Source: Acidobacteriota bacterium (GTDB taxonomy: Bacteria > Acidobacteriota > UBA6911 > RPQK01 > JAJDTT01). From it: 64,000 bases of DNA. Numbering within the stretch: the first letter of the stretch is position 1; each line of letters starts with the position of its first letter. Both the position numbers and the translations under genes were made by a program. The stretch is from the NCBI GenBank assembly GCA_965217775.1, contig CBDCJH010000002.1, positions 1,024,001 to 1,088,000 of the forward strand. Direction: 5' to 3'. The notes beneath the pieces were generated by a model. It searched no databases and was not told the origin of the DNA. It worked only from the letters and a program-made list of their open reading frames with translations. Below, in pieces: positions 31,349 to 51,503 of this stretch.

Positions 31349-31537
31349 GGTAATGCGGTTTCATATTCGACTCGTCCCGATTCACTACGTCGTCGGGGTC
31401 ATCCCATAACGTCGGCTATCGGGAGGGTGCAAATAACAGGCGAGCCAATGCCGACCTCGAAGTTCGCACGCTCAGGGGTTTAGTGAAAGGCGAGTCTACC
31501 TTACAATTTGCAGATCGAATTCAATGGAGTTGGAGCC

Positions 31538-31774
31538 ATGGCCATCACGCTCACAGTGACTCTCAAGGGGCAGATCACCTTGCGCAAAGAGGTACTCAAT
31601 CATCTCGGGGCGCGTCCCGGCGACAAACTCGAGGTCGACCTGCTGAAGGCCGGACGGATTCAACTGAGGCCGAAGCGTGGAACCTCGCCGGCAAGCGTCT
31701 TCGGTATGCTTGCAAGACCGGGAACACCACGTCTTTCCATCGAAGAACTCAACCAGGCCGCTGCTTCCGGATAG
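31538..31774 (+). CDS. AbrB/MazE-type antitoxin (VapB-like)
   Basis: LTVTLKGQITLRKEVLNHLGARPGDKLEV. The TAG stop looks like a mutated TGG: readthrough gives W-A-D-E-E-stop with a GTGA overlap on the toxin start. Confidence 0.85.
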   Translation: MAITLTVTLKGQITLRKEVLNHLGARPGDKLEVDLLKAGRIQLRPKRGTSPASVFGMLARPGTPRLSIEELNQAAASG

Positions 31775-31785
31775 GCGGACGAGGA

Positions 31786-32205
31786 GTGAGGATTAAAGCC
31801 GATCCGAATGTGCTGCTGGGTGCCATCCTACAGGATGACCAGGAACAGGCCTCAGCGGCACGGGCGGTGCTCCTGCGCGCGACGGTCATTACCGTTCCCG
31901 TGCCGGTCTTCTGCGAGTTTGTTTGGGTGTTGAAGCACGGCTACGGTCGGAAGGTCGATGAGATAGCCGTAGCGATCGAGGCCATATGTGAAATCGACGC
32001 CGTGGTCACTGATATACCGGCGGTCGAGGCAGGTTTGACCCTGCTGCGCGCAGGCGGACACTTCGCCGACGGAGTCATCGCCCATCAAGGCGAAGGATTC
32101 GGCGGAAGCGTGTTCGCCAGTTTCGATCGCAACGCCATCGCTCTCTTGAAGAGGAACGGGTCGGCGGCAGCCGAAGTCTCTGAGTTGATCGGCACCGGGC
32201 GGTAA
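31786..32205 (+). CDS. vapC: PIN-domain VapC-family toxin
   Basis: ADPNVLL (variant of DTNVL), CEFVWVL, HFADGVIA, ASFDR; directly downstream of the AbrB-type gene. Confidence 0.8.
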   Translation: MRIKADPNVLLGAILQDDQEQASAARAVLLRATVITVPVPVFCEFVWVLKHGYGRKVDEIAVAIEAICEIDAVVTDIPAVEAGLTLLRAGGHFADGVIAHQGEGFGGSVFASFDRNAIALLKRNGSAAAEVSELIGTGR

Positions 32206-32285: not shown

Positions 32286-32417
32286 CTAAAATGTTCTGTT
32301 CATGAGCTGTCGCCGGAGTTCCATGAACTCAGACTCAAGGCACCCAAATACCTTATCGACATAATCGTCCAAATTTGCGCGGACTTCGTCGAAGTTGACT
32401 TCAAAAGGAAACGACAT
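32286..32417 (-). pseudogene. Short ORF overlapping the methyltransferase 3' end; probable truncated partner gene (possibly the endonuclease)
   Basis: MSFPFEVNFDEVRANLDDYVDKVFGCLESEFM... stops after 43 aa; its start overlaps the MTase end by 17 nt. Confidence 0.4.
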
Positions 32418-34755
32418 CACGTGTCTCTTCGTCGGACTGTTTCTTTCGTAACAACGGTCCCGGCGATATTGGTACAGGATCGGCAGCGGCCACTAGTTCC
32501 AAGATGTGGACAGGATCTCCAAGGCTGGATACTGTGTCGCCAAATGCCGCGATCTTGTTAGCTATCGGCTGACCCTTGTCCCAAAGCGGGCGGAGCTTCC
32601 AGACGGCCATACGTGTCAGATGGCCGAAGACGATACAACGGGTGTCGCCTCGGGTCGGCTTTCTGCCCGCCTGCTCCAAGTCCGCCAAATCCACCGCCAC
32701 GATTGCTGCAAGCTGTTCGGGCGTGTCGAATATCCAGCGGCGCGGCACTGCACCCGACGCCCGGCAGACGAACACGGTATCGATGATCGATGAACCCGTG
32801 CCGTGGATGTGGATGGAGCCCCCCATCTCGGCGGGACAGGGCAGTGTGGCAGAAACGACCAGGTCGGCGTCCAGGATGGCCACTCCGACGGCGTGATACG
32901 TCTCCAGCTTGTTGTGGTGGTAGGTGAACGCGAGCGGTGCGCCGGGCTTCAAGGCTTGGGCCATTCGCGAATAGGCGGCGGAGAGTCCTTCTGTGAAATG
33001 ATCCAATCCATGATTCCGGGTTACATTGCCATTAAGTTCGTCCTGAGATCGTGTGAGCGCGCGCTCAAAGCCATCCGCCTCGTTTCCCACCAAGCGTCGA
33101 AGCCAGACATAACAGAAGTCCATTAGCTCGCTATACTGCACGTTGCCGTAATACGGAGGGTCTGTGAACACGGCGTCGAGGCTCTCCGGCGAGACATCGA
33201 TAGAGGTGGCGCTGGCACAACGGATGGCCACTTTGCGCCGTTGCCCGCCCCGCTTCTCGCCGATCCATTCCCCTTTGATGGGAACCCGGACATTACGGGT
33301 CCCTCTGCGCCTGACTTCGAACGGCGCGCTGCAATACAGTTTCGCCTTGGCATATTTGTGGACAATGTTGGACCACCCGCCGGAGCCCACGTTGCGGCCG
33401 GCTCCGTTGTTTATGCGCAGGAGATTGGATTCGCACTGTACCAACCCCACCGGAAAGCCGTGCACGGAGAAGATGTCCAAAGATTTGAGCGCCGTAATGT
33501 CGTAGCGGCAGAGCATGTTCTGGTAGCGCAACAGGTCGGAGAGATTGGTGGCGATGGCATGCCGTATTCGCTGGTCCTTGACCTGGGAAATCAGCCGGCA
33601 ACTTAACAGTCCGTGGTGAAAGTCCCGCGAGCACCGAGACCGTTCCTGCGCCCGCCGGACAAGGCGCGATTCGGGTGCATACCGGGAGTATGTGCCCGAA
33701 TCGCAACGCCGTCCGCCGGGATGCAGGGACAGTCGAATGCCGTGATGACTTTTGCCACGGGCTGTTAACTCCAACCCTAGAAGTTGGCGTGGATTGAAGA
33801 GGTCTTTAAAGCGGGTGTACCCGCAGCGATGCAGACGATCGGTCTCGTCGCCGGCGAGGATCTCCTGGTTCGGAACGAAGCTGGGAGTGAGCTGTTCCCA
33901 TCGCTGTGAGGCAGCCTCCATGCGCAATGCATCTTCTTTGTCCGGTTTCTTGAAGAAACGGCCCTTGTGTTTCGCCTTTCGCGTGGGGTTGAAATATTCC
34001 ATCGCGAACATGCGGTGCCGCAGAGGACGTTGCGCCTCTCCCGGGTAGGCGTTGGAATGCCCGCAATGGGGGCATTCGCAGCGTCCTCTGCGCGCGGGGC
34101 CGGCTTGGCGAAGTTCGGTCCCACAGCTCGAGCAACCTCCCGAATCCCTGTAGTCCTCGACTTGGTTCAGATCACCGCAGGTCGGGCACACCAGGACATT
34201 CATCGGGTGACGCCGGTTCCTGGCGACCAGGTAGCCCGGAAAGAGGTCGAATGCTTGCCCGCAACGCACGCAATCGAGCACCTTGACCCAGAGGAAGGAC
34301 TTCACGGGTACGTTGGAATCCCCGTAGAGTGGGCAGGAGGTTCGGTAATATCGATCGATTTCCGTACGCAGAGCCGCAAGTAGCCTCTGAACTGCCTGCC
34401 GGTAAGCCGACAGGTCGACGGATTCAAGCTCTTCGCGGACAATCCACGCAGACATCGGATTGATGTCGAAACCCTGCACTTCGCATCCAACTCGATTGGC
34501 CTCAATGAGCGGGGTTCCACCGCCCATGAACGGGTCTGCGATCCGGATCCCCGAAAAGTCGTTTCTCCGGAAAAAAGTCTTTTCAAGACGGTCACGACCG
34601 AACTCGGCCAAAATCAGGCCACGAAACAGGGTGCCGGGACGGCGGGCGAACCACTTATGGACACCGATGATGGGACGGTAGTTCTGCTGTATCTGTTTTT
34701 CCTTGAATGCCATTCGGGCGACCAAGGAAACATCGAATCTGTGCTCGATACTCAT
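32401..34755 (-). CDS. Amino-DNA methyltransferase with Zn ribbons (DUF1156-like), carrying an in-frame MITE insertion
   Basis: HKWFARRP, motif I DPFMGGGTP, several CxxC pairs, motif IV TDPPYY, FTYHH. A 54-aa insert lies between LLGLEL and SCRLIS. Confidence 0.88.
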   Translation of the reverse strand: MSIEHRFDVSLVARMAFKEKQIQQNYRPIIGVHKWFARRPGTLFRGLILAEFGRDRLEKTFFRRNDFSGIRIADPFMGGGTPLIEANRVGCEVQGFDINPMSAWIVREELESVDLSAYRQAVQRLLAALRTEIDRYYRTSCPLYGDSNVPVKSFLWVKVLDCVRCGQAFDLFPGYLVARNRRHPMNVLVCPTCGDLNQVEDYRDSGGCSSCGTELRQAGPARRGRCECPHCGHSNAYPGEAQRPLRHRMFAMEYFNPTRKAKHKGRFFKKPDKEDALRMEAASQRWEQLTPSFVPNQEILAGDETDRLHRCGYTRFKDLFNPRQLLGLELTARGKSHHGIRLSLHPGGRRCDSGTYSRYAPESRLVRRAQERSRCSRDFHHGLLSCRLISQVKDQRIRHAIATNLSDLLRYQNMLCRYDITALKSLDIFSVHGFPVGLVQCESNLLRINNGAGRNVGSGGWSNIVHKYAKAKLYCSAPFEVRRRGTRNVRVPIKGEWIGEKRGGQRRKVAIRCASATSIDVSPESLDAVFTDPPYYGNVQYSELMDFCYVWLRRLVGNEADGFERALTRSQDELNGNVTRNHGLDHFTEGLSAAYSRMAQALKPGAPLAFTYHHNKLETYHAVGVAILDADLVVSATLPCPAEMGGSIHIHGTGSSIIDTVFVCRASGAVPRRWIFDTPEQLAAIVAVDLADLEQAGRKPTRGDTRCIVFGHLTRMAVWKLRPLWDKGQPIANKIAAFGDTVSSLGDPVHILELVAAADPVPISPGPLLRKKQSDEETRDVVSF
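33607..33764 (-). mobile_element. 158-bp MITE-like element, copy 2, with TTAA target duplication, in frame in the MTase
   Basis: TTAA at 33603-33606 and 33765-33768; ends CAGTCCGTGGTGAAAGTC and GACTTTTGCCACGGGCTG on the + strand. Confidence 0.93.
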
Positions 34756-40669: not shown

Positions 40670-40912
40670 TCTCTAAATGTAGTTGATCGAAAGGTAGGCA
40701 GGTGGAGCTCCACAAAACTCGGGACAACACCGCCTGCGACTTGGCTCGAAATGTACGAAGCTTGGTTGCAGGAATTTTCCGCCAATGCAACCGTCGTCTC
40801 CGAGACTCGACTCTCAGCGAAGCTGGTTTTTGTTACAACGAGATTCGGTCTCGGGCAAGCGCTGAAGGCTGAAATCCTGCGCGATCATCGCGCCCCCGGT
40901 GAGAAATTCGGG

Positions 40913-41227
40913 CTAAGCGGCCACGCCAGGTTGGGGCGTCACCTCCTTGTCGAGTCGATCCTTGAGGACAGCCTTCGCTGTTTCAAGCTCGTAGCGAGAC
41001 TGCAAATTCATCCAGAATCGAGCGGAGTTTCCAAAGTACCTGCTTAACCGGAGCGCCGTGTCTGCCGTGATGGCGCGCTTCTCGTGAAAGATCTCATTGA
41101 TCCGGCGGGGCGGCACCGAGATGTCCTTGGCCAGCCGGTATTGGGTCAGGCCCATCGGCTTCATGAACTCCTCCCGCAGAATTTCTCCGGGATGGATGGG
41201 TTGCAGGGTCTGGTCTCTCTGATCCAT
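40913..41227 (-). CDS. higA: HigA antitoxin
   Basis: PIHPGEILREEFM..LTQYRLAK..RRINEI..ITADTALRL..FWMNLQ. Confidence 0.93.
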   Translation of the reverse strand: MDQRDQTLQPIHPGEILREEFMKPMGLTQYRLAKDISVPPRRINEIFHEKRAITADTALRLSRYFGNSARFWMNLQSRYELETAKAVLKDRLDKEVTPQPGVAA

Positions 41228-41252
41228 TGATCAGTCTCCTTCTACCCTCCTG

Positions 41253-41534
41253 CTAGTGGTAGTCCACCACCTCCACGTCAAACGCGTCGCCGGTCTCCCA
41301 GTGAAAGCAGATCCGCCATTGTCGATTGATCCGGACGCTATATTGGCCTTTGCGGTTGCCCGAGAGCGCCTCCAGCCGGCTGGAGGGTATCATCTTGAGG
41401 TCCCTGAGCGATTCGGCTGCGTCCAGCATTTCCAGCTTCCTGAGTGCAGCTTTCTTCAAAACCGGCGGAAACTTCCGTTGAAGCCGCCTGTTGAAGAGCT
41501 TTTCAGTGTCCTTGCAGTGGAAGCTCTTGATCAG
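41253..41534 (-). CDS. higB: HigB (RelE-like) toxin, CTG at the expected start position
   Basis: (L)IKSFHCKDTEKLF..ALRKLEMLDAA..RLEALSGNRKGQYSVRINRQWRICF..VEVVDYH. Confidence 0.9.
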   Translation of the reverse strand: MIKSFHCKDTEKLFNRRLQRKFPPVLKKAALRKLEMLDAAESLRDLKMIPSSRLEALSGNRKGQYSVRINRQWRICFHWETGDAFDVEVVDYH

Positions 41535-41540
41535 GGAAGG

Positions 41541-41569
41541 ATAATGACTCGGCGCGTTAAGGTTGTCAA
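41541..41569 (-). promoter_or_regulatory. sigma70-type promoter of higBA
   Basis: On the minus strand: TTGACA, a 17-nt spacer, then CATTAT ending 6 nt before the CTG. Confidence 0.7.
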
Positions 41570-41823
41570 GCGTTATGGTTCTCCCGCGCCGTCGAGGCGT
41601 GCCACCCTCCCCTGACCCAAATTGGCCCAGGTTTTTCCAACTCTTCAAGCGGTATCCGGCGTCCCGAAAGGTCTGCCCAATCCCAGCCTCCGAGAGTCAA
41701 TTCGGGGAGGACTGAGGCTGGAACCCTCTCCGTAGCCCGTTCCCGCATTCGGCCAGACGGGACTCTCTTGCATCACTAAATACTATCGAAGGTTCAACCT
41801 TCCGCCCGGAGGAACAGATCGCG

Positions 41824-43236
41824 ATGTCAGTCCACTTGCCAAGAAACCCGCACCTTCTGATGAACTACTGGCTCAGTCTGGCGAGGCTGAAACTTCCAAG
41901 AAAACGTTTTCGTCTCCTGTTCAGCTATTTTCAGCGGGAACCGACTTATTCGCTGGCGCTTGCCTCCCTGTCCGCGTACGCGAAGAATTTATTTCCGGAT
42001 GTTGAGGTGTCCCTGGTTTCCGTCCTCCAAAATGACGATGTCCAGGAATATGTGCGGCGTGTGGCGAAGCACAAGCCCGATCTCATCGCGGTCTCGGCCA
42101 TGCATCCGACCTGGTCGCCCATGCTTCCCTATTTGGAGGCTCTCAAGGGAGCGCGGCCGGCGACACCCGTCGTCGTCGGAGGATATCAGGCAATTTTCAG
42201 TCCTCAGGAGACCATCGGCCATCCGGCCGTCAACTACATCTGTGCGGGAGATGGCGAAATACCTCTGGCACAACTGATTCGACGTTTGAAAGATGGTGAG
42301 ACCCAGGAGGCCATTCCAGGGTTGTGGGAAAAGCGAGGCAGTGGAGAAATCGTCAAGAGCTCCCCAAGTCTGACCCCGAACTTGGACGAGATCCCCTTTC
42401 CCGACTACACGATCTTCGAGAAAGACGGGGAAATCTCCTGGCTCAGTTCTCATGCCATCGAGTCCGAGCGGCTGATCACGATGCCGGTCATGTCGGGCCG
42501 GGGGTGTCCCTACCGCTGCAGCTATTGTTGCAATACTCCATTGCTGGAAATGTATCGAGGACAGGGTAACTATTTACGAAAGTACAACCAGGAAAAGCTG
42601 ATCGAGGAATTAATTCGTTTGCGCGACCGTTACGGCATCCAATACTTCCAGTTTATGGATGAGACCTTTCTTTTCGACAAGCGATCCGCCCGGCGCCTTC
42701 TTGGGCTTTATCGGGAGCAGATCGGTCTTCCTTTCTCCATGTTCACCCGGGTGGAGCAGATGGACGAAGATTTTTGCCGCTACGCGGCAGCTGCCGGTTG
42801 TCACTCGATGTGGTTCGGTGTTGAAAGTGGGTCGGAGGCCTATCGCCGCCGCTACCTGGCTCGGAGAATGTCGAACCGGAAGATTCTGGATGCCGCCGAG
42901 ATGGCAAGAAGGCAGGGTATCAGGCGGATGGTCTTTTGCATGGTGGGGATGCCGTTCGAAAGCCGTGAGAATATTCTCGAAACCCTTGAGTTGACGAAAC
43001 TCATTGGGCCGGAACGAGCCATTTTCAGCCAGTATCTCCCTTTACCTGGAACGCCCTTGTACAAGGTCGCCGAACAAGCCGATCTTCTGCTGGACTCGAC
43101 CCGGAAGCAACAGATGTGGAGCATAGGCACGCTCAATATCAAGGAACAAGCCGGATCGGTCTCGGCACCGGAGTTCAAGGAGTTGGTGGACGAAATCTTG
43201 ACCTACGTCTGGGAAGGCAATCGGATTGACGATTGA
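41824..43236 (+). CDS. Cobalamin-binding radical SAM enzyme (class B methyltransferase-like)
   Basis: N-terminal B12-binding-like region (PDLIAVS, VVVGGY, GDGE), SGRGCPYRCSYC, FMDETF, GVESGS, PLPGTPLY. Confidence 0.9.
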   Translation: MSVHLPRNPHLLMNYWLSLARLKLPRKRFRLLFSYFQREPTYSLALASLSAYAKNLFPDVEVSLVSVLQNDDVQEYVRRVAKHKPDLIAVSAMHPTWSPMLPYLEALKGARPATPVVVGGYQAIFSPQETIGHPAVNYICAGDGEIPLAQLIRRLKDGETQEAIPGLWEKRGSGEIVKSSPSLTPNLDEIPFPDYTIFEKDGEISWLSSHAIESERLITMPVMSGRGCPYRCSYCCNTPLLEMYRGQGNYLRKYNQEKLIEELIRLRDRYGIQYFQFMDETFLFDKRSARRLLGLYREQIGLPFSMFTRVEQMDEDFCRYAAAAGCHSMWFGVESGSEAYRRRYLARRMSNRKILDAAEMARRQGIRRMVFCMVGMPFESRENILETLELTKLIGPERAIFSQYLPLPGTPLYKVAEQADLLLDSTRKQQMWSIGTLNIKEQAGSVSAPEFKELVDEILTYVWEGNRIDD

Positions 43237-43379
43237 CGATTGAGATGTCGGAAGCGGGTGTTGGATTCCGGCTTCAATGGAAATCCCGAGCCTTGCTTGA
43301 CTGCTGATTCCTGATCGACGGCAGGTTTGTAGAAGATCCGTAGTCCGGTCACCATGACCGCATGTCCGGCACCGGTTGA

Positions 43380-44603
43380 ATGCGCTTCGATATCGATAAA
43401 CCACGGGACCGGCTGATCAGCGGGCGCATTCAGGCGTTGAGTGGATGGATTGAGGCCGACGGTCCTGATTTCACTCTGGTCGCCGTGTGTGGACGCCGCG
43501 AAATCCGGCTCCGAGAGTGTGCTCATCCGGTACGCCATCTGATTCCCGGAGCCCGCGGCTTCTGGGGGTACCTCGTCCTGCAAGAGTTCCTGGGGTCCAT
43601 ACGACGAGAATTCCTTCATGTCGACCTGATCTGGAAGGGCTCGCGTCTCACGACTCTGCATTTCCGGGTCTTCCCCGTGGCCAAAGAGCTGGCGCGTCGT
43701 TATCCCCTCGATTTGAAGAACTATCCAGTGGGAAGTCGGCATCCGGTGTTCGAGCCTTCGAAACCTGCCCGCGCTCTCGTCTTCCCAGGTCTTGCCCAGG
43801 TCGGAGGGTCGTCACTGAACCAACTGATGCGTTGGAAGATGTATCAGGAGGACTGGTGCTTTCCGGTATACGAGGATGGCAACGATGCGGAAACCTGGAC
43901 CCAATTCCGTGCACTCGAAATCCCCTCGGTCCGCTGGATCGACGGCCACGATTGCTATGGTGCCGCCGACAGTTTGAGCCAGCCGTTTGCTCGAATCACT
44001 CTATTACGCGAACCAATACAACGCTATGTGTCTCTTTTCAACTACGCATCGCTCGTGCATCCACAAGAGTTTGGCTACGCCACCTTCGAAGAGTCCATAT
44101 ACTCAGGTAAAGCCAGACAATATTCTCAATCCTACAGATTGCTGCAATGCGCCGGACGCGACGTATCACCGTCGATTCCTGACGATGAACTCTACACCAG
44201 GGCCAAACAGGAACTTGAGGCTTCCTATGCCTTTGTCGGCATTACCGAGTTATATGAAGAGAGCATCTTCCTGATATGCGAACTTGCCGGTATCGAGTCC
44301 ATCGGCATGTGGTGGAGGATTCTGTCTTCTCCCAAAAGCATCCGGCTTTGGAGCCTTTCCCTTCGGGCCCGGAACCGGCTGCGACGGCTCTTGGCCGTTG
44401 ATCTTCGCCTCTATAGAGAAAAGAGGCAGGATCTGCTCAATCTTCTACGTCGATCAGATTTTGGCACCGCCCTGAAGTCGTATCGAAAGGCTGCGCTCGA
44501 ACAGCCGGAACTGCCCGATGTCTTCAAGGCCGTCGAGTGTCTGCGATGGAGGCAGACGATTGCGGAAGAGCGGCTTGCACGCTTCGAACGGGATAAACGA
44601 TGA
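43380..44603 (+). CDS. Sulfotransferase-fold protein with atypical 5'-donor loop; candidate phosphoramidate transferase
   Basis: 3'-phosphate-binding motif ITLLREPIQRYVSLFNY, GH motif, FVGITELYEESI, DLRLY. The loop reads PGLAQVGGSSL where HIPKTGGTS is usual. Confidence 0.7.
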   Translation: MRFDIDKPRDRLISGRIQALSGWIEADGPDFTLVAVCGRREIRLRECAHPVRHLIPGARGFWGYLVLQEFLGSIRREFLHVDLIWKGSRLTTLHFRVFPVAKELARRYPLDLKNYPVGSRHPVFEPSKPARALVFPGLAQVGGSSLNQLMRWKMYQEDWCFPVYEDGNDAETWTQFRALEIPSVRWIDGHDCYGAADSLSQPFARITLLREPIQRYVSLFNYASLVHPQEFGYATFEESIYSGKARQYSQSYRLLQCAGRDVSPSIPDDELYTRAKQELEASYAFVGITELYEESIFLICELAGIESIGMWWRILSSPKSIRLWSLSLRARNRLRRLLAVDLRLYREKRQDLLNLLRRSDFGTALKSYRKAALEQPELPDVFKAVECLRWRQTIAEERLARFERDKR

Positions 44604-47044
44604 CTGAGACACTCATGGGTCATACCGGTGCTCCGGCGGACCAATCCATTCATCGATCGGCGGCTGGAGGCTTCCTGACCAAGGCGGAGGCGTTGGAGTT
44701 TGTGCACGGAAATCTGAAATATGCGCAGATTCCGCCGTTTCTATATTTTTCCGTTGGCGAGTGGCGATGGCGCAACGAAAACGTTTTGCGCAAGGTCGCA
44801 GCCTTTCTGTCCGAACGTCCGCTCGCCGTACGAAGTTCCGCCCGGTGCGAGAACCTGAGCGGTGCCTCTCTGGCGGGGCATTTCCGGTCCTGTTTGAACG
44901 TGGAAAACGATCGGAGGCCGGTCCGGGAAGCTGTCGAGCGGGTGATCGCTTCCATGGGCGGCCACCGGGACGATCAGGTTCTGATTCAAGAGATGGTGGT
45001 CGGCGTTTCTCTCAGCGGGGTCATTTCCACGCGAGACTCGGATACCGGTGCTCCCTACTACCGAATCGAATATGACGAGTCGTCCGCGACGGATCTCGTG
45101 ACCAGAGGGGCGGAGGGACACCAGACCATTCTCTTCCATCGGCAGTCACCGCGAGAACTGATCGGACCGGATTGGGTCTGCCGGGTTCTGGATGCCTCCT
45201 CGGAGCTGGAGCGGTGCTGGGGCCGGACTCCACTGCATATCGAGTTTGCACGGACTCATGACGGGAAAATCCAGATTCTTCAGGTGCGGCCGATATCGAG
45301 CCGGGAGCAACGGGGACGGGGGCATGAGGCGCGAACGATTGCAGCCCTGCGGAAGCTTGAGATCTCCTTGGTCGAACATTCTCGTCGCCGGCACGGCGTC
45401 GCCGGATCAACCACGATTCTCGGGCAGATGCCGGACTGGAACCCGGGAGAACTGATCGGAAGTACGCCTCGACCGCTCGCCGTGTCACTGTTTCGCAAAC
45501 TGATCACGGATAGGGTGTGGCAGGAAGCTCGTTCCACCATGGGTTACCGTCCCGTCCCGGACACGCCGCTGATGGTCGTGCTCGCCGGGAGACCTTACGT
45601 GGATGTCCGGGCGAGCTTCAATTCGTTTCTCCCCGCGGGACTGCGCCGTCTCGACGAAGGTGCGGTTGTAAATGCTTGGCTTGGCCGATTACGTCAATAT
45701 CCGGAATACCACGATAAAATTGAGTTTCAGGTCGCCCAGACAGTATTGGACTTTTCGTTCGGGCAAGACTATCGGCGGCGATATGCAGGCACGCTGTCTC
45801 GCAAGTCGTTCTTGGACTATGCCGAGCGAGTGCGTTGCCTGACGAATCGCAACGTTTCCCTTGGCCCTTCCGCGTCGTTGGCTGAGGCGCTCCGCAAGTT
45901 ACGGAAGTTGGAACAGGCTCAGAGTTGCCGAGAATCTGCGATTCGGCCGTCTCTCTCCTTTGCGTTTCGATTGTTGCGGGAGTGTCGTCTGCTCGGCACG
46001 CTCCCGTTCGCCATTGTCGCGCGCCACGCCTTTATCGCGGAATCGATACTCCGGTCCGCAATGCGGAGGTCCGCGTTGAGCCGGGAACGATTGGATCAGT
46101 TCCGGCGTTCGTGGAGTACCGTGGGTCGGAATGTGGGGCGTGACTTGGCCAGAGTCATGCACGGCGAGGTCGACGCGGTTTCGTTCCTTGGAAAATACGG
46201 ACATCTGAGACCGGGCTCTTTCGACATCCTCTCTCCCCGCTACGACCAACGGCCGGACCTGTTTGCGGGCAATTCCGTCCACCCATCGACATTCGAGTCC
46301 GAAGGGGACTGTTTTGTTTGGACTCCAAAAGAAATCGTCCACATCGAACGCCTTATCAGGGAAGCAAGGCTGACCTTCAGCGCTGAAGAACTGTTCCGCT
46401 ACTCAGCGACGGCCGTCACGGCTCGAGAACATGCGAAATTCGTTTTCAGCCGGCATCTATCGGACGCTTTGGAATCCATCGCCGGTTGGGGAAAGGGGGT
46501 CGGCCTCAGTCGCGAACAGCTCTCGTACTTGACGGTTGAGGATCTGAAATCCGCACTCCGCTCTCCCCTTGGCGATGGCGGAGTCGCGTTGGCGGCCGTG
46601 GCAGAGTCCGGACGGTCGGCAACACGAAGCCGGCGAGGTCTCCGCCTGGGCTGCCTGATCCGCAACCGCAGAGATATCTACCTTCCGCTACAGCATGCAT
46701 GGCCCAACTTCATCAGCTCTCGCCGCGCCGAGGGTAGACCGGTGTTTCTGCATAACCGGGAGTCGGTTGCGTTGGATCTGAGCGGGAAAATAGTCTGCAT
46801 CGAGAGCGCGGACCCAGGCTTCGATTGGATATTCTCTATGGGGATCGCAGGCTTGATCACCAAGTTCGGCGGCTCCAATTCCCATATGGCGATCCGCTGC
46901 GCAGAGATGGGAATACCGGCTGCCGTCGGAATCGGTGAAACCCGCTTTGAACTCCTTCGAAAGTCGAAATCCGTCGAATTGAGCTGTGGTGACAGAGCGA
47001 TTCGGGCCATTCCTGGCCCACAGCCCGAACCCATGACCTGGTAA
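44600..47044 (+). CDS. L-glutamine kinase-like PEP-utilising family enzyme (Cj1418-like)
   Basis: TKAEAL, VRSSA..E..SLAGHF ATP-grasp region, MPDWNPGELIG, YGHLRPG, ADPGFDWIF..GGSNSHMAIR phospho-His domain. Confidence 0.88.
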   Translation: MTETLMGHTGAPADQSIHRSAAGGFLTKAEALEFVHGNLKYAQIPPFLYFSVGEWRWRNENVLRKVAAFLSERPLAVRSSARCENLSGASLAGHFRSCLNVENDRRPVREAVERVIASMGGHRDDQVLIQEMVVGVSLSGVISTRDSDTGAPYYRIEYDESSATDLVTRGAEGHQTILFHRQSPRELIGPDWVCRVLDASSELERCWGRTPLHIEFARTHDGKIQILQVRPISSREQRGRGHEARTIAALRKLEISLVEHSRRRHGVAGSTTILGQMPDWNPGELIGSTPRPLAVSLFRKLITDRVWQEARSTMGYRPVPDTPLMVVLAGRPYVDVRASFNSFLPAGLRRLDEGAVVNAWLGRLRQYPEYHDKIEFQVAQTVLDFSFGQDYRRRYAGTLSRKSFLDYAERVRCLTNRNVSLGPSASLAEALRKLRKLEQAQSCRESAIRPSLSFAFRLLRECRLLGTLPFAIVARHAFIAESILRSAMRRSALSRERLDQFRRSWSTVGRNVGRDLARVMHGEVDAVSFLGKYGHLRPGSFDILSPRYDQRPDLFAGNSVHPSTFESEGDCFVWTPKEIVHIERLIREARLTFSAEELFRYSATAVTAREHAKFVFSRHLSDALESIAGWGKGVGLSREQLSYLTVEDLKSALRSPLGDGGVALAAVAESGRSATRSRRGLRLGCLIRNRRDIYLPLQHAWPNFISSRRAEGRPVFLHNRESVALDLSGKIVCIESADPGFDWIFSMGIAGLITKFGGSNSHMAIRCAEMGIPAAVGIGETRFELLRKSKSVELSCGDRAIRAIPGPQPEPMTW

Positions 47045-47103
47045 TCCGAAAACTCGAGGAGAGAATGAGAATCTGACGGCTCGAATTCTGGTGAGGAAAA
47101 CAT

Positions 47104-47748
47104 TTGAGCGGCACATGGCGACTGGGTTTGACGATGCGAGTGCAAGGATGTGACGACTCGCATGAACTTCGGGACGTGTTGGCCCATGACTGGCCGGTGC
47201 TCATCCGCGCCAGTCTGGGCGACGTGCCCTGGCTGGCGATACCGAATCTCGAGGAATCGGTAAAGGACTACCTGCAACGATGGCGGATCGGCGCCGTGAT
47301 TCTCACGGGCGGTGAAGACATCGGGACTTCCCCTTTGCGCGATGAGACCGAACGCCATGTTCTGGACTACTGCACCGAGAGGAGAATGCCGGTATTGGGA
47401 GTGTGCCGCGGGCATCAAATGATTCAGGTGTACTGCGGAGGCAGTCTGCAGAACGTGCCAACGGCGCGGCATGTCGGGACCAATCACTCGGTATTCGTTT
47501 GTCATGACAGGAGTCGTGCCGTATGGGGAAGCGGTCCGTTGAAGGTGAACTCCTACCATCGCCAGGGTGTGTCCCTGGAACGTCTCGGCCGGGGCCTGCA
47601 TCCGTGGTTGGTCTCCTCCGATGGTCTGGTCGAAGGGTTTTTCCATTCCGAAATGAATCTATTGGGCGTTCAATGGCATCCGGAACGGCGTCTTCCGGAC
47701 CCCGGTATGGCCAATAGACTCATGCGTTTCCGTTTCACTCGAAAATAG
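47104..47748 (+). CDS. Class I glutamine amidotransferase-type hydrolase (Cj1417-like)
   Basis: LTGGED, LGVCRGHQ (Cys), VNSYH, GVQWHPE (His-Glu). Confidence 0.88.
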   Translation: MSGTWRLGLTMRVQGCDDSHELRDVLAHDWPVLIRASLGDVPWLAIPNLEESVKDYLQRWRIGAVILTGGEDIGTSPLRDETERHVLDYCTERRMPVLGVCRGHQMIQVYCGGSLQNVPTARHVGTNHSVFVCHDRSRAVWGSGPLKVNSYHRQGVSLERLGRGLHPWLVSSDGLVEGFFHSEMNLLGVQWHPERRLPDPGMANRLMRFRFTRK

Positions 47749-47793
47749 GGCTGATCGCTGAGTGGGATCGACGGGTTCTCCAGGCCGAAAAGA

Positions 47794-48606
47794 ATGCCTC
47801 CAATGGACAAAGACGTTCGGAGTATGAAGCCAGGCCGGAATCGTGCGGGAAGTGTGAGGGCTCTGGTCTTGGCAGCGGGACGCGGCACTCGATTGAATCA
47901 TCTGACCCGCGATCGACCGAAGTCCCTGGTCACACTGGAGGGCAAGACCCTGTTGGAATGGCAGATCGCGTCCTTGAGGGCGGCGGGTGTCTCCGATATT
48001 ACGGTAGTTCGTGGATATCGGGGGGAGATGATCGATCTTCCCGGACTTGCGTACCTGGAGAACGCCGATTGGGCACGAACCAACATGGTCCATTCGTTGA
48101 GATGTGCCGATGAGTGGTTGAAGGCGTCGGTCTGCATCGTCTCCTACGGAGATATTGTCTACCACCCAAGCTTGGTTTCCGCCCTGGTCGATACGCCCGG
48201 AGAGATCGTCGTCGCCTATGACGTTCTATGGGAAAGGCTTTGGCAAGAGCGCTTCGAGGATCCGGCAGTCGACGTGGAGAGCTTTCGAATCGAGGATGGA
48301 TGGATCGTGGAGATCGGGGAAAGCGTCAGTTCATTGGAATCGGTCGAAGGCCAATACCTGGGACTGTTCAAGTTGGCGCCCGAGGGTTGGCGCAAGATAC
48401 GTGGGTTTTTGAGCCTGACGGAGGACGCGACGGCTCGAAGTCTTGACGTGACCGCCTTGCTCAGCCGTCTGATTGGGGAAGGGATCAAAGTCAAGGGAAT
48501 CCCGATCCGAGGCCGCTGGTGCGAGCTCGACCACGTCACGGACCTACGGATATATGAGCGAATGATCCAATCAGACACGCAGTGGAGCCACGATTGGCGG
48601 CTCTGA
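47794..48606 (+). CDS. Nucleotidyltransferase, LicC-like (Cj1416-like)
   Basis: LVLAAGRGTRL..RPKSL, TNMVHSL, SYGDI, GQYLGL, WCELD. Confidence 0.88.
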   Translation: MPPMDKDVRSMKPGRNRAGSVRALVLAAGRGTRLNHLTRDRPKSLVTLEGKTLLEWQIASLRAAGVSDITVVRGYRGEMIDLPGLAYLENADWARTNMVHSLRCADEWLKASVCIVSYGDIVYHPSLVSALVDTPGEIVVAYDVLWERLWQERFEDPAVDVESFRIEDGWIVEIGESVSSLESVEGQYLGLFKLAPEGWRKIRGFLSLTEDATARSLDVTALLSRLIGEGIKVKGIPIRGRWCELDHVTDLRIYERMIQSDTQWSHDWRL

Positions 48607-48667
48607 AGCACCGTGGGGCCGTGGGGCGGGACTGACGTCGAGGGGGCTACGCCATGGGGTTCCCCAA

Positions 48668-49230
48668 TGAATGAGATCTGGCCGGACTGGCCTGAGATCG
48701 GGTCCGAGGGCAAGAGGGGATGGGTGTTCTGGGTGACCGGTTTGTCAGGTAGTGGAAAGACCACGATCGGACAGCTTCTTTTCCGGCGCCTGCGGGAGCG
48801 GGCCGTCAATTCAGCATTTTTGGATGGAGACGTTCTACGCCAGGTTTTCGGCAATGATTTGGGGTACACACTGGAAGAAAGAAGGAAGTGCGCACGGCGC
48901 TACTCACGGATCAGTGCGATGCTTGCCGGCCAGGGTCTGAACGTGGTGATCGCGACGATTTCGATGTTCCACGAATGTAGCGAATGGAATCGGGCGAACC
49001 TTCCCCGATACTTTGAAATCTACCTGCGGGTTCCGCGGGATATCCTGGCTATCCGACGGTCTCCGGATCTGGGCGCCAATCCGGAACGGAGTCAGATGGA
49101 ATCCGTTGTCGGTTGGGATCTGCCCTTCGATGAGCCTCTCAATCCCGATCTGATCATCGACAACGACGGCTCGATGGCTCCGCAGGAAGTTGCGGACTCC
49201 ATTTGGAGTAGGGTCGTAGCGTCGTTATGA
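48668..49230 (+). CDS. APS kinase-like protein (Cj1415-like cytidine diphosphoramidate kinase)
   Basis: WVTGLSGSGKTT, LDGD, ATISMF, YFEIYL, EPLNPDL; start uncertain (48613 or 48668). Confidence 0.85.
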
Positions 49231-49239
49231 CGTCCATCC

Positions 49240-50043
49240 ATGATGGATACCTGGGATTACACTGCTTTAGCTGCTTCCTACAACAAGCGGGCACCCTATT
49301 CGAAACAGGTCATTGACGAATTTCTGCGGAACTCAGGTGTCAGGAGCGGTGCGAAAGCCTGCGACATCGGGGCCGGAACCGGTAACTTGACGTTGTTCCT
49401 GCTCAAATGGGGACTTCGAGTCGTAGCTGTAGAGCCGAACCCGGCCATGCGCGCGATCGGGATGCCTCGGACGAAGTCTTTTCCCGATATTCGTTGGATA
49501 AATGCCCGTGGCGAGGCAACCGGACTACCGGCGTCGGAATTCGACGTCGTCACCTTCGGCTCGTCGTTCAATGTCCTCGATCGGAACCGAGCTCTCGTGG
49601 AGACCGCTCGCATCCTCAAGCCGAAGGGTTGGTTCGCCTGCGTCTGGAATTACAGAAACCTCGACGACCCGTTGCAGAGGAGGATCGAGGAGGTGATCCA
49701 CGGATTCGTGTCCCGCTACGATTACGGCGTGAGGCGCGAAGATCAGACCGAAGTTATCCAGGCGAGCGGTCTTTTTGACCGGATCGTCAGGATTGACCGG
49801 GGGTTCAAACACCGGACAAAAGCATCGGATTGCATGGATGCCTGGCGAAGTCACGCCACCCTCGCTCGTCAAGCCGGTCCGAAAACGCTCGGTCGGATCC
49901 TCGAGAAGATCGAATGCTTGCTGACGGAACCGGGTGGAAGGGACGTCGAGGTGCCCTACACGACCTCCCTCTGGATGGCAAAAAAGTCCGACGCCTGGAA
50001 TGAATCACCGGGTCCGGCTGCTCAGCGGAACCGTAGCGAGTAG
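49240..50043 (+). CDS. Class I SAM methyltransferase (Cj1419-like)
   Basis: DYTALAASYNKRAPYS, DIGAGTG, AVEPN, FGSSFN, WN, AWRSH..QAG. Confidence 0.85.
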   Translation: MMDTWDYTALAASYNKRAPYSKQVIDEFLRNSGVRSGAKACDIGAGTGNLTLFLLKWGLRVVAVEPNPAMRAIGMPRTKSFPDIRWINARGEATGLPASEFDVVTFGSSFNVLDRNRALVETARILKPKGWFACVWNYRNLDDPLQRRIEEVIHGFVSRYDYGVRREDQTEVIQASGLFDRIVRIDRGFKHRTKASDCMDAWRSHATLARQAGPKTLGRILEKIECLLTEPGGRDVEVPYTTSLWMAKKSDAWNESPGPAAQRNRSE

Positions 50044-51503
50044 AGGTCCGCGTCCTTCATCACGAAACGCAGGCGCACCGGCTTCCCCGAGAATCGCGCC
50101 AGGGGTTTGGACGAGGTGGCCTTGGGATGGTTTCGTTTCCACCGGACCGTGTGCTCGATCTCGTCGCCCCAGATCAACGGGGACTCCTCCAGGGCGAATC
50201 CGGCCAGGGGCCGTCCGCCGGCGTCCTGGATCTCCAACCGGATGCTTCCCGCCGCCGAGGTCGCGAAGTTCAACACCAGGTTCTCACCCGTGAAGGTCAG
50301 AGGCCGGGTGATCAGTTCGCCTCCTTCCGGGCCGGCATGCACCGACATGAATCCGTCGGTCCGGATCACCATCCGCTCCAGGTAGTTGGTGGGAAACGTG
50401 TAGTGGCGTTGGACGAACAGCGAGATCTCGTCTGGCGCGGTCGCCAGTAGGCCCCAGGCGGGCGTGTTGGAGCGATGGGACCAGTTCCGTATCTCGGTCC
50501 CAGGACGAATGAAGGCATCCAGTTGGCGATTCCAGTGGATGGCGTCGCGGCTGGACATGAAGATGGCGTCGGAGCAACCGCCGCCTTGAGCCTGATTGAA
50601 GGGGCCCCGCGTCTTCCAGGGGTGGAAACGCCGGGGAAAGGCCAGATAGATGTGAGGCGCCCTGAAGTAAGGGCGGGTCGCGTTGGTGTAGAGGTGCTCG
50701 GCGGGTGCATCCCCGAACTCTCCCCATTGGCCCGGCGTCCAATTCCTGAAGTCGGTGGAGGTGGCGATCTTGATGGTGCGAACTCCGAGCTTGAAATCCC
50801 GGTAGACGGAGACGTAGCGCTGGTGGGCCGTGTCCCAGAAGGCCAGATTGGGAGAGTCGAAGGCCCCGTCGGTGATGATGGGCTCCTCCCTCATCTCCTT
50901 CCAGTGGATTCCGTCGGGTGAAACGAATGCGTAGAGAGCCCGTCGGTGCGGACCCACGGCCTTGTAGAGTTCGGAAACGGGCGCCTCAGGGTTCGAATCC
51001 TTGAAGGGAAGAAAGGCCGGCGTGCCTTTTCCCATCCAGACGATGTTGTTGTCCCTGGTTCCTTCGTACTCGTATAGCCCCAGCGAGGGCCGGGTCCAGT
51101 GGATCCCGTCCCGGCTCTCGGCGTAGCACGCGGTATGGGGGTGCTCGGGGATCACCTCCTCACCCGGCTCCAGGAGCGACTCCAGGGCGTATCCGGCATG
51201 ACTGCTGCCCCGGTAGTACATTCGGTAGAGATCACCGTCCTGGAAAACGACAGCCGTGCTTCCACTGGTCACTCCCTCCCAGGGCCGGTCGAAGACCAGC
51301 ACCTTTCCGGCGCGCCGAGGGGTGTGGAGCTTGAGTTCCAGACCCTTCAGGGAGTCGATGAGGTAGTTGTCGACAAAAATCTCCAGACGGGAGTCCAACT
51401 CCCGCACCTCTGCGAGAGCCTTCCGGTCGTGCCGGCCGCCTTCGAGGGCGGAAGGAGAGATCATGATCAGGACGAGTAACGGGTTAAGGAATCGGAATCT
51501 CAA
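50022..51503 (-). CDS. Secreted beta-propeller glycoside hydrolase-like protein
   Basis: DRPWEG, YAESRDGIHWTRP, SPDGIHW, RTDGFMS, NFATSAAGSIR, LRFVMKDADLYS; resembles the N-terminal half of 25258..28566. Confidence 0.75.
   Translation of the reverse strand: MRFRFLNPLLVLIMISPSALEGGRHDRKALAEVRELDSRLEIFVDNYLIDSLKGLELKLHTPRRAGKVLVFDRPWEGVTSGSTAVVFQDGDLYRMYYRGSSHAGYALESLLEPGEEVIPEHPHTACYAESRDGIHWTRPSLGLYEYEGTRDNNIVWMGKGTPAFLPFKDSNPEAPVSELYKAVGPHRRALYAFVSPDGIHWKEMREEPIITDGAFDSPNLAFWDTAHQRYVSVYRDFKLGVRTIKIATSTDFRNWTPGQWGEFGDAPAEHLYTNATRPYFRAPHIYLAFPRRFHPWKTRGPFNQAQGGGCSDAIFMSSRDAIHWNRQLDAFIRPGTEIRNWSHRSNTPAWGLLATAPDEISLFVQRHYTFPTNYLERMVIRTDGFMSVHAGPEGGELITRPLTFTGENLVLNFATSAAGSIRLEIQDAGGRPLAGFALEESPLIWGDEIEHTVRWKRNHPKATSSKPLARFSGKPVRLRFVMKDADLYSLRFR

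Follow-up and report, generated by a model that had tools for sequence, protein, structure and literature searches.

A sulfotransferase-fold protein family lacking the loop lysine as candidate phosphoramidate transferase of bacterial glutamine kinase cassettes

For Campylobacter jejuni, Cj1415-Cj1418 have been reported to make cytidine diphosphate (CDP)-phosphoramidate 3'-phosphate, the likely donor of the phosphoramidate modification, and the deletion of Cj1421 and Cj1422 removes this modification (excerpts of PMC11800397). The genes of these two proteins lie beside cj1415-cj1418 and methyltransferases, and phosphoramidate transfer has been assigned to them (excerpts of PMC11800397 and PMC3907429). 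[quoted passage not shown] The attachment step is not known to have been reconstituted even in C. jejuni, and according to the accessible text of PMC12409886, from the group studying this pathway, the decoration steps were still future work in 2025. Here, another candidate for this step is described, the 407-amino-acid protein P0001, which is encoded at 43380-44603 (+, ATG start) of a 64,000-nucleotide stretch from an Acidobacteriota bacterium (assembly GCA_965217775.1, contig CBDCJH010000002.1, positions 1,024,001 to 1,088,000 of the forward strand; called the window in the following). P0001 has a sulfotransferase-type fold, is encoded within a seven-gene cassette resembling cj1415-cj1418 and probably transfers phosphoramidate.

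The second group for comparison are the carbohydrate sulfotransferases using 3'-phosphoadenosine-5'-phosphosulfate (PAPS), such as the heparan sulfate sulfotransferases HS2ST (3f5f) and HS6ST (5t03). A homologous catalytic domain, the RxPxxRxxS motif and a histidine aligned with the base are common to them and to P0001. In contrast to these enzymes, the P0001 family contains FPGLGAVGG in place of HIPKTGG, carries an additional N-terminal domain of ~125 amino acids and is always linked to the CDP-amidate pathway and not to the PAPS pathway. Like Cj1421/Cj1422, P0001 is linked to homologues of cj1415-cj1418, whereas it contains neither DUF2972 (PF11186, no match at E <= 0.01) nor a predicted membrane helix. 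By description, this sets it apart from Cj1421/Cj1422; a sulfotransferase-like N-terminus in these proteins, if present, would bear on the novelty of the finding.

A word-indexed search with P0001 revealed 73 proteins, 68 of which are close family members (E <= 3e-48) and five distant ones named 'sulfotransferase family 2'. In the family alignment the homologues begin at the same place as the start codon of P0001, and the maximal Kyte-Doolittle mean of 1.27 (19-residue window) predicts a soluble protein without a membrane helix. A precomputed match to PF06990 (Gal-3-O-sulfotransferase) is present in 25 of the 68 close homologues. P0001 itself reaches 16.9 bits (E 0.0073) against Pfam Sulfotransfer_2 (PF03567), below the gathering cut-off of 22, and due to this the fold assignment rests on profile methods and on the ESM Atlas model of a homologue. 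An alignment of 33 of the 69 family sequences, P0001 counted (A1), was compared by hhalign with 20 canonical Sulfotransfer_2 proteins (A3) and matched over residues 126-372 (99.9%, E 4.5e-32). Against the PDB, the A1 profile found HS6ST3 (E 3.3e-4) and HS2ST (E 1.8e-3) with their motifs aligned, LLREPxxRxxS lying over IRDPIERLVS. An exhaustive search with this profile yielded 6528 representatives at E <= 1e-3, 1916 at 1e-10 and 39 at 1e-30. The Atlas model of P0056, a homologue 41% identical to P0001, matches Gal3ST3 (TM-scores 0.54/0.50) as well as bacterial Sulfotransfer_2 clusters; the highest TM-scores among its matches are 0.54 by query and 0.80 by row, and the matches begin at residues 127-134. 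Profile methods and model agree on a Sulfotransfer_2/Gal3ST-type domain; a sulfotransferase fold had been proposed by a sequence-only reading of the window. Judged by its sequence, the catalytic domain of P0001 is homologous to the Sulfotransfer_2/PAPS-type sulfotransferase superfamily.

In front of this domain lies a family-specific N-terminal domain (residues 1-125, 43380-43754, +), which is conserved in the family, has no Pfam match and contains the residues P8, R16, P50, F61 and A105, invariant within the family. It is absent from canonical relatives, as these align only from residue 126 on, and its measured length of ~125 amino acids comes close to the ~130 estimated before. Fused forms of the family longer than 713 amino acids were not found at E <= 1e-10, which is weak evidence. 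The N-terminal domain and the B12-radical SAM (S-adenosylmethionine) enzyme encoded next to P0001 are probably related to the acceptor.

The most striking difference to canonical sulfotransferases is located in the 5' loop FPGLAQVGGSSL (residues 135-146, 43782-43817, +), of which residues 136-146 read PGLAQVGGSSL. The family form of this loop is FPGLGAVGGxSL, in contrast to HIPKTGGTTL of the canonical relatives, and hmmalign and hhalign place G137 and Q140 at the positions of the canonical His and Lys, respectively. The absence of both residues had been read from the window sequence alone, and for the Lys it holds for the whole family: position 140 is K or R in none of 70 family members (A in 39, G in 22, Q in six, S in two, a gap in one), and in two of them, P0026 and P0031, the residue just before it is Arg. 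Because of this conservation, the change of the loop is not a chance event. Among 115 relatives outside the family, Lys occupies position 140 in 93 and Arg in 12, and the remaining ten have neither.

A FastTree phylogeny of 185 domains, midpoint-rooted and built from representatives only, groups the 70 family members into one clade (support 0.996). This clade is nested among sequences with variable loops; a split with support 0.998 separates this larger group from 94 sequences displaying K or R wherever position 140 can be aligned (two of them are not alignable). Among the further proteins, two consist of two sulfotransferase-like copies in tandem: P0096 (623 aa), in which the loops of both copies are Lys-less (TSTGGN, PSSGGN), and P0106 (624 aa), in which both contain a basic residue (IPRSGG, PKTGG).

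The 3'-phosphate-binding motif LLREPIQRYVSLFNY (residues 208-222, 44001-44045, +) aligns with the (I/L)RDP..R..S of HS2ST, HS6ST and canonical Sulfotransfer_2 proteins. It had been regarded as intact in P0001 and is so across the family: R210 is present in 70/70 members, as it is in 115/115 relatives, and at position 218, 65 members have S and five have T. Furthermore, His190 (43947-43949, +) is found in 70/70 members and 115/115 relatives. In the PDB profile alignment, its surrounding RWIDGH lies over FYHGH of 3f5f/4ndz, where the aligned His is presumably the catalytic base of HS2ST.

A scan for family loci in one genome per species gave 21 loci, which were compared with the window proteins by tblastn. 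Twelve of these harbor a homologue of at least 40% identity and stem from Acidobacteriota, Verrucomicrobiae, 'Deltaproteobacteria'/Binatia and Polyangiaceae metagenome-assembled genomes (MAGs). At two of them (L005, L012) the contig ends at the gene; in the ten that extend further, the glutamine kinase gene follows directly or one cassette gene later. Close homologues with the same loop but mostly lacking phosphoramidate genes had been named as the finding that would overturn a phosphoramidate function, and the opposite is observed, with the kinase beside the gene in 10/10 loci. The family gene has the radical SAM gene as its neighbour at 11 of the 12 loci, all but L003, and the amidohydrolase is present in the window cassette, L001, L002, L003, L004 and L007. 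A cassette is also present at L014 (29% identity, frameshifted in the MAG), and at L013 (33% identity, loop HGLESSGS) none lies within 10 kb, the kinase being located 580 kb off on the same contig. For the seven distant loci L015-L021 no kinase was found nearby, and three of these genomes, searched as a whole, are kinase-free. Beyond the seven cassette genes none is conserved between the loci, with only a HigB/HigA pair in common between the window and L002.

The co-occurrence on genome level points in the same direction. In the phylum of the window, five of 401 genomes contain the kinase; the A1 family is present in two of these five, G000 and G170, which share a genus, and is missing from all 396 kinase-negative genomes. 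Two further genomes give weak matches only. In the phylum of G406 the kinase is present in seven of 301 genomes.

For kinase-positive genomes not already seen, ~20 kb around the kinase were inspected. Among 12 kinase-positive genomes, the A1 family is present in three (G000, G170, G406), and three others contain a Sulfotransfer_3 gene inside the cassette, with the loops GRSGS (G391), GPSGT (G459) and ATSGT (G429) and a common LDGHP motif. In G616, a Sulfotransfer_2-like gene with the loop IPKC is located 1.5 kb from the kinase. The Sulfotransfer_3-type genes (L027 P0213, L064, L067) occupy the same position as the P0001 gene, beside the APS-kinase-like (adenosine 5'-phosphosulfate kinase-like) or the glutamine kinase gene, and two of the three likewise lack a basic loop residue, one keeping Arg. 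In contrast to P0001 they belong to another lineage (PF13469, 28.9 to 92.9 bits), which is missed by the A1 profile, and an adjacent B12-radical SAM partner of the window type is absent.

A metagenome scan with the loop-variant relatives gave 16 loci, many of them short. Here, loop-variant Sulfotransfer_2-like genes stand beside cassettes on L046 (SNSGG), L037 (SRTGG), L035 (SCTGG) and L039. No cassette was found within 12 to 20 kb of the Lys- or Arg-bearing genes of L038, L040 and L044; L034 and L036 (3.3 and 4.9 kb) showed no cassette genes, which at such length is uninformative. The fold recurs in kinase cassettes in at least two lineages, and the basic loop residue is often but not always missing. 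A correlation of Lys loss with Cj1418-like neighbours, which the sequence-only reading had put forward for testing, is not a strict rule, as L027 (GRSGS), L037 (SRTGG) and L069 (IPKC) stay basic. By these three loci, Lys loss as a strict marker of kinase linkage is ruled out.

Several of the other cassettes contain additional genes. In G391 (L027 13748-15757, -, and neighbours), the cassette lies beside a Wzt-type ABC (ATP-binding cassette) transporter (Wzt_C) and a GT4 glycosyltransferase, which hints that the phosphoramidate there may modify an exported polysaccharide at its terminus. In G429, a sulfatase/alkaline-phosphatase-superfamily protein of 557 aa (L067 5021-6691, -) is encoded beside the APS-kinase-like gene, together with the Sulfotransfer_3 gene. 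Two other kinase cassettes harbor HAD/PNK3P-like phosphatases (L029 3078-4370, +; L033 5761-6339, -), which by analogy could strip the 3'-phosphate from a cytidine bisphosphate by-product. CysQ does the same for 3'-phosphoadenosine 5'-phosphate (PAP). No such phosphatase is present in the island of the window.

The cassette of the window forms an 8.4-kb island (~41581-50021) with exactly the seven genes, which is cleanly missing in four other genomes of this genus, all without the kinase. By blastn, window positions 40888-41580 and 50026-51503 are ~100 bp apart in G148, positions 40852-41579 and 50022-51503 are 64 bp apart in G260, and the empty sites of G200 and G088 are similar. The GC content is 56-58.5% in the island compared to 63-66% in the flanks; an integrase or an obvious target duplication was not seen at the island. 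An RNA-library contig (X19) joins 41579 to 50022; its shorter side comprises 43 letters and would be a hint only if taken alone, and it is consistent with the empty sites. As a single insertion/deletion unit, the seven genes move together.

The P0001 gene overlaps the start of the kinase gene (ATGA at 44600-44603, next open reading frame (ORF) 44600-47044), as had been noticed before and as is read directly in the sequence. Metatranscriptome contigs from one study (X19, X20) cover 29 and 26 of 30 bins, where the uncovered bins (one and four of 30) carry no meaning and the contig depth inside and outside the island is not interpretable. RNA-library contigs cover the P0001 gene and bridge the junctions of radical SAM and sulfotransferase-like gene (41995-43592) as well as of sulfotransferase-like gene and kinase (44438-44821). 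The sulfotransferase-like gene is probably translationally coupled to the donor pathway.

Taken together, all comparative tests run, among them linkage, co-occurrence and island, fit the proposal of the sequence-only reading that 3'-phospho-CDP-amidate and not PAPS is the donor. The product of Cj1415 is a structural analogue of PAPS. It is fairly likely that P0001 transfers phosphoramidate from this donor, an assignment drawn from sequence and gene neighbourhood. Mechanistically, four neighbouring enzymes would make the donor 3'-phospho-cytidine-5'-diphosphoramidate, which P0001 in the cytoplasm would grip by its 3'-phosphate, as sulfotransferases grip PAPS. His190 would deprotonate the acceptor hydroxyl, which would attack the terminal phosphoramidate phosphorus with release of cytidine 3',5'-bisphosphate (pCp), and the adjacent SAM methyltransferase would then O-methylate the product.

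A number of observations weigh against this assignment. In sulfotransferases the loop Lys stabilises the leaving group, and phosphoramidate transfer should need similar help, so that a swap of the donor leaves the loss of the Lys unexplained; R151, R205 and R215, all of them invariant, might stand in for it. Some cassette-linked relatives keep Lys or Arg (L027, L037, L069), and no sulfotransferase-fold gene was found near the kinase in five of the 12 kinase-positive genomes (G020, G372, G523, G617, G553), the contig of G372 ending ~1 kb past the cassette. DUF2972 was not found in ten kinase-positive genomes, yet it matched nowhere, control genomes included, so that this search lacks a positive control. 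Conserved acceptor-related or precursor genes are not present around the cassette across the 12 loci, and the RNA-library contigs may include DNA. A tblastn match of the amidohydrolase is missing in L006, L008 and L009, where the other cassette genes are present. Finally, a Sat-CysC fusion is encoded in the genome of the window (G000:C2:4.56 Mb), ~3.5 Mb from the island.

The missing amidohydrolase bears on the specificity for the donor. At L006, L008 and L009 either the hydrolase is encoded elsewhere or a glutamine-bearing donor is used, and P0001 might generally accept another 3'-phosphorylated intermediate, transferring phospho-glutamine from 3'-phospho-CDP-glutamine or using an O-methylated donor. 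Methylation may come before or after the transfer, and in C. jejuni the decoration steps were not settled as of 2025 (PMC12409886, in part). The window cassette and L001, L002, L003, L004 and L007 nevertheless contain the amidohydrolase, and in the genomes of the three other loci it may sit at another place. This explanation is considered unlikely.

The Sat-CysC fusion raises the question whether P0001 is a true PAPS-dependent sulfotransferase, sulfating an acceptor that another enzyme decorates with phosphoramidate. Since the genome encodes this fusion, PAPS is probably available in the cell; furthermore, fold, 3'-phosphate motif and catalytic His are all intact, and the L067 cassette contains a sulfatase-family gene. 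On the contrary, a basic loop residue is found in 0/70 family members compared to 105/115 relatives, and the family has never been seen away from the kinase cassette. The APS-kinase-like gene of the island is separate from the second, stronger APS-kinase copy fused to ATP sulfurylase. No match to an ATP sulfurylase was obtained for any of the seven ORFs of the island, in agreement with the absence claimed before, and the island holds no other group transferase, a role for which DUF2972 proteins were not found in the ten kinase-positive genomes, with the lack of a positive control mentioned above. A function as PAPS sulfotransferase appears quite improbable. That P0001 is a non-transferase with a degenerate loop, which binds or hydrolyses 3'-phosphorylated nucleotides and senses or clears the donor or pCp, would fit the lost catalytic Lys, the rebuilt 5' loop and the generally degenerate loops in the surrounding clade, but is very improbable, as His190 is kept in 70/70 members, the region on the acceptor side shows strong conservation between phyla, the cassette would be left without any transferase and the HAD/PNK3P-like phosphatases of other cassettes suit the clearance of the by-product better.

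If P0001 is a phosphoramidate transferase, the sulfotransferase fold would be capable of a phosphoryl-type transfer of a P-N group, and this would explain why the pathway closes with a 3'-kinase making a look-alike of PAPS. The family offers a soluble candidate of 407 aa with a well-understood fold, which can be assayed directly with the known donor. It would also provide sequence signatures to annotate phosphoramidate decoration in soil and sediment bacteria, which are rich in glutamine kinase homologues. Pathway and fold have been known already; as far as searched, the assignment of the fold to the transfer step and the Lys-less family of ~70 sequences are new. Literature pairing the glutamine kinase or a transferase of O-methyl phosphoramidate (MeOPN) with a sulfotransferase was not found in a search that left subscription papers and supplements outside.

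A wider and rather doubtful idea is that phosphoramidate transferases outside Campylobacter arose from the PAPS-type fold on several separate occasions, namely in the Lys-less Sulfotransfer_2 family with the loop variants and in Sulfotransfer_3, with repeated loss of the basic loop residue. The island would then represent an autonomous, horizontally moving module. Its product, made with the B12-radical SAM partner, would be a methylated phosphoramidate that is attached to a common acceptor of the cell or exists as a free small molecule, and is not carried by a capsule.

The seven genes of the cassette are arranged in the order B12-radical SAM enzyme, sulfotransferase-like protein, glutamine kinase, amidohydrolase, nucleotidyltransferase, APS-kinase-like protein and methyltransferase. 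PDB searches with the cassette enzymes gave generic relatives only and no Campylobacter entries, and a promoter and terminator scan was uninformative, as the counts did not exceed the shuffled expectation. The first gene (41824-43236, +) encodes a radical SAM enzyme of 470 aa with the Pfam domains B12-binding and Radical_SAM; it reaches no NCBIfam model (best 90 bits against a cut-off of 750), and its best solved relatives are AprD4, TokK and OxsB. The kinase (44600-47044, +, 814 aa) is a Cj1418-type L-glutamine kinase, with 802.6 bits against NCBIfam NF004508 (cut-off 501) and the Pfam domains PPDK_N and PEP-utilizers. The name 'glutamine kinase' was given by JGI to 11 among the 120 homologues listed, and 1749 homologues were found at E <= 1e-30. 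For Cj1418, phosphoenolpyruvate (PEP) synthase/pyruvate phosphate dikinase (PPDK) domains have been described (PMC6482885, in part).

The following gene (47104-47748, +) encodes a class-I glutamine amidotransferase-like protein, probably a gamma-glutamyl-CDP-amidate hydrolase of the Cj1417 type; among the NCBIfam models it matches NF045546 GCDPHdlase best (E 1.7e-28), where 100 bits stay under the cut-off of 250. The nucleotidyltransferase (47794-48606, +; Pfam NTP_transf_3, E 1.7e-17) has CTP:phosphocholine cytidylyltransferase (1jyk) as best solved relative and is probably a CTP:phosphoglutamine cytidylyltransferase of the Cj1416 type, a specificity deduced from gene context. The APS-kinase-like 3'-kinase of the Cj1415 type (48613-49230, +) scores 92.7 bits against Pfam APS_kinase and 158 bits against NF004041 (cut-off 127). 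The SAM-dependent methyltransferase (49240-50043, +; Pfam Methyltransf_11, E 4.9e-15) is a putative phosphoramidate O-methylase, this O-methylation being probable, and a homologue is present in most glutamine kinase cassettes of every type examined.

Outside of the cassette, the Pfam analysis of the ORFs flanking the island revealed nothing pointing to the acceptor. Its left edge is abutted by a toxin-antitoxin gene pair (40913-41648, -), coding for a HigB-like toxin of 131 aa (PF05015, E 1.3e-18) and for a 104-aa antitoxin of the HTH_3 type. A homologous HigB/HigA pair flanks the L002 cassette on the opposite side, and the pair is missing at the empty site of G200. On the right side, the ORF at 50022-51503 (-) encodes 493 aa without a Pfam match. 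Its family is greatly expanded: each of five genomes from the genus gives 69 to 81 matches on DNA level (65-89% identity). Further upstream of the region, a protein of 784 aa (32401-34755, -) displays weak matches to DNA methylases and DUF1156. Next to it lies the gene of a PIN-domain protein (31483-32205, +), and these two may represent defence or mobile-element genes.

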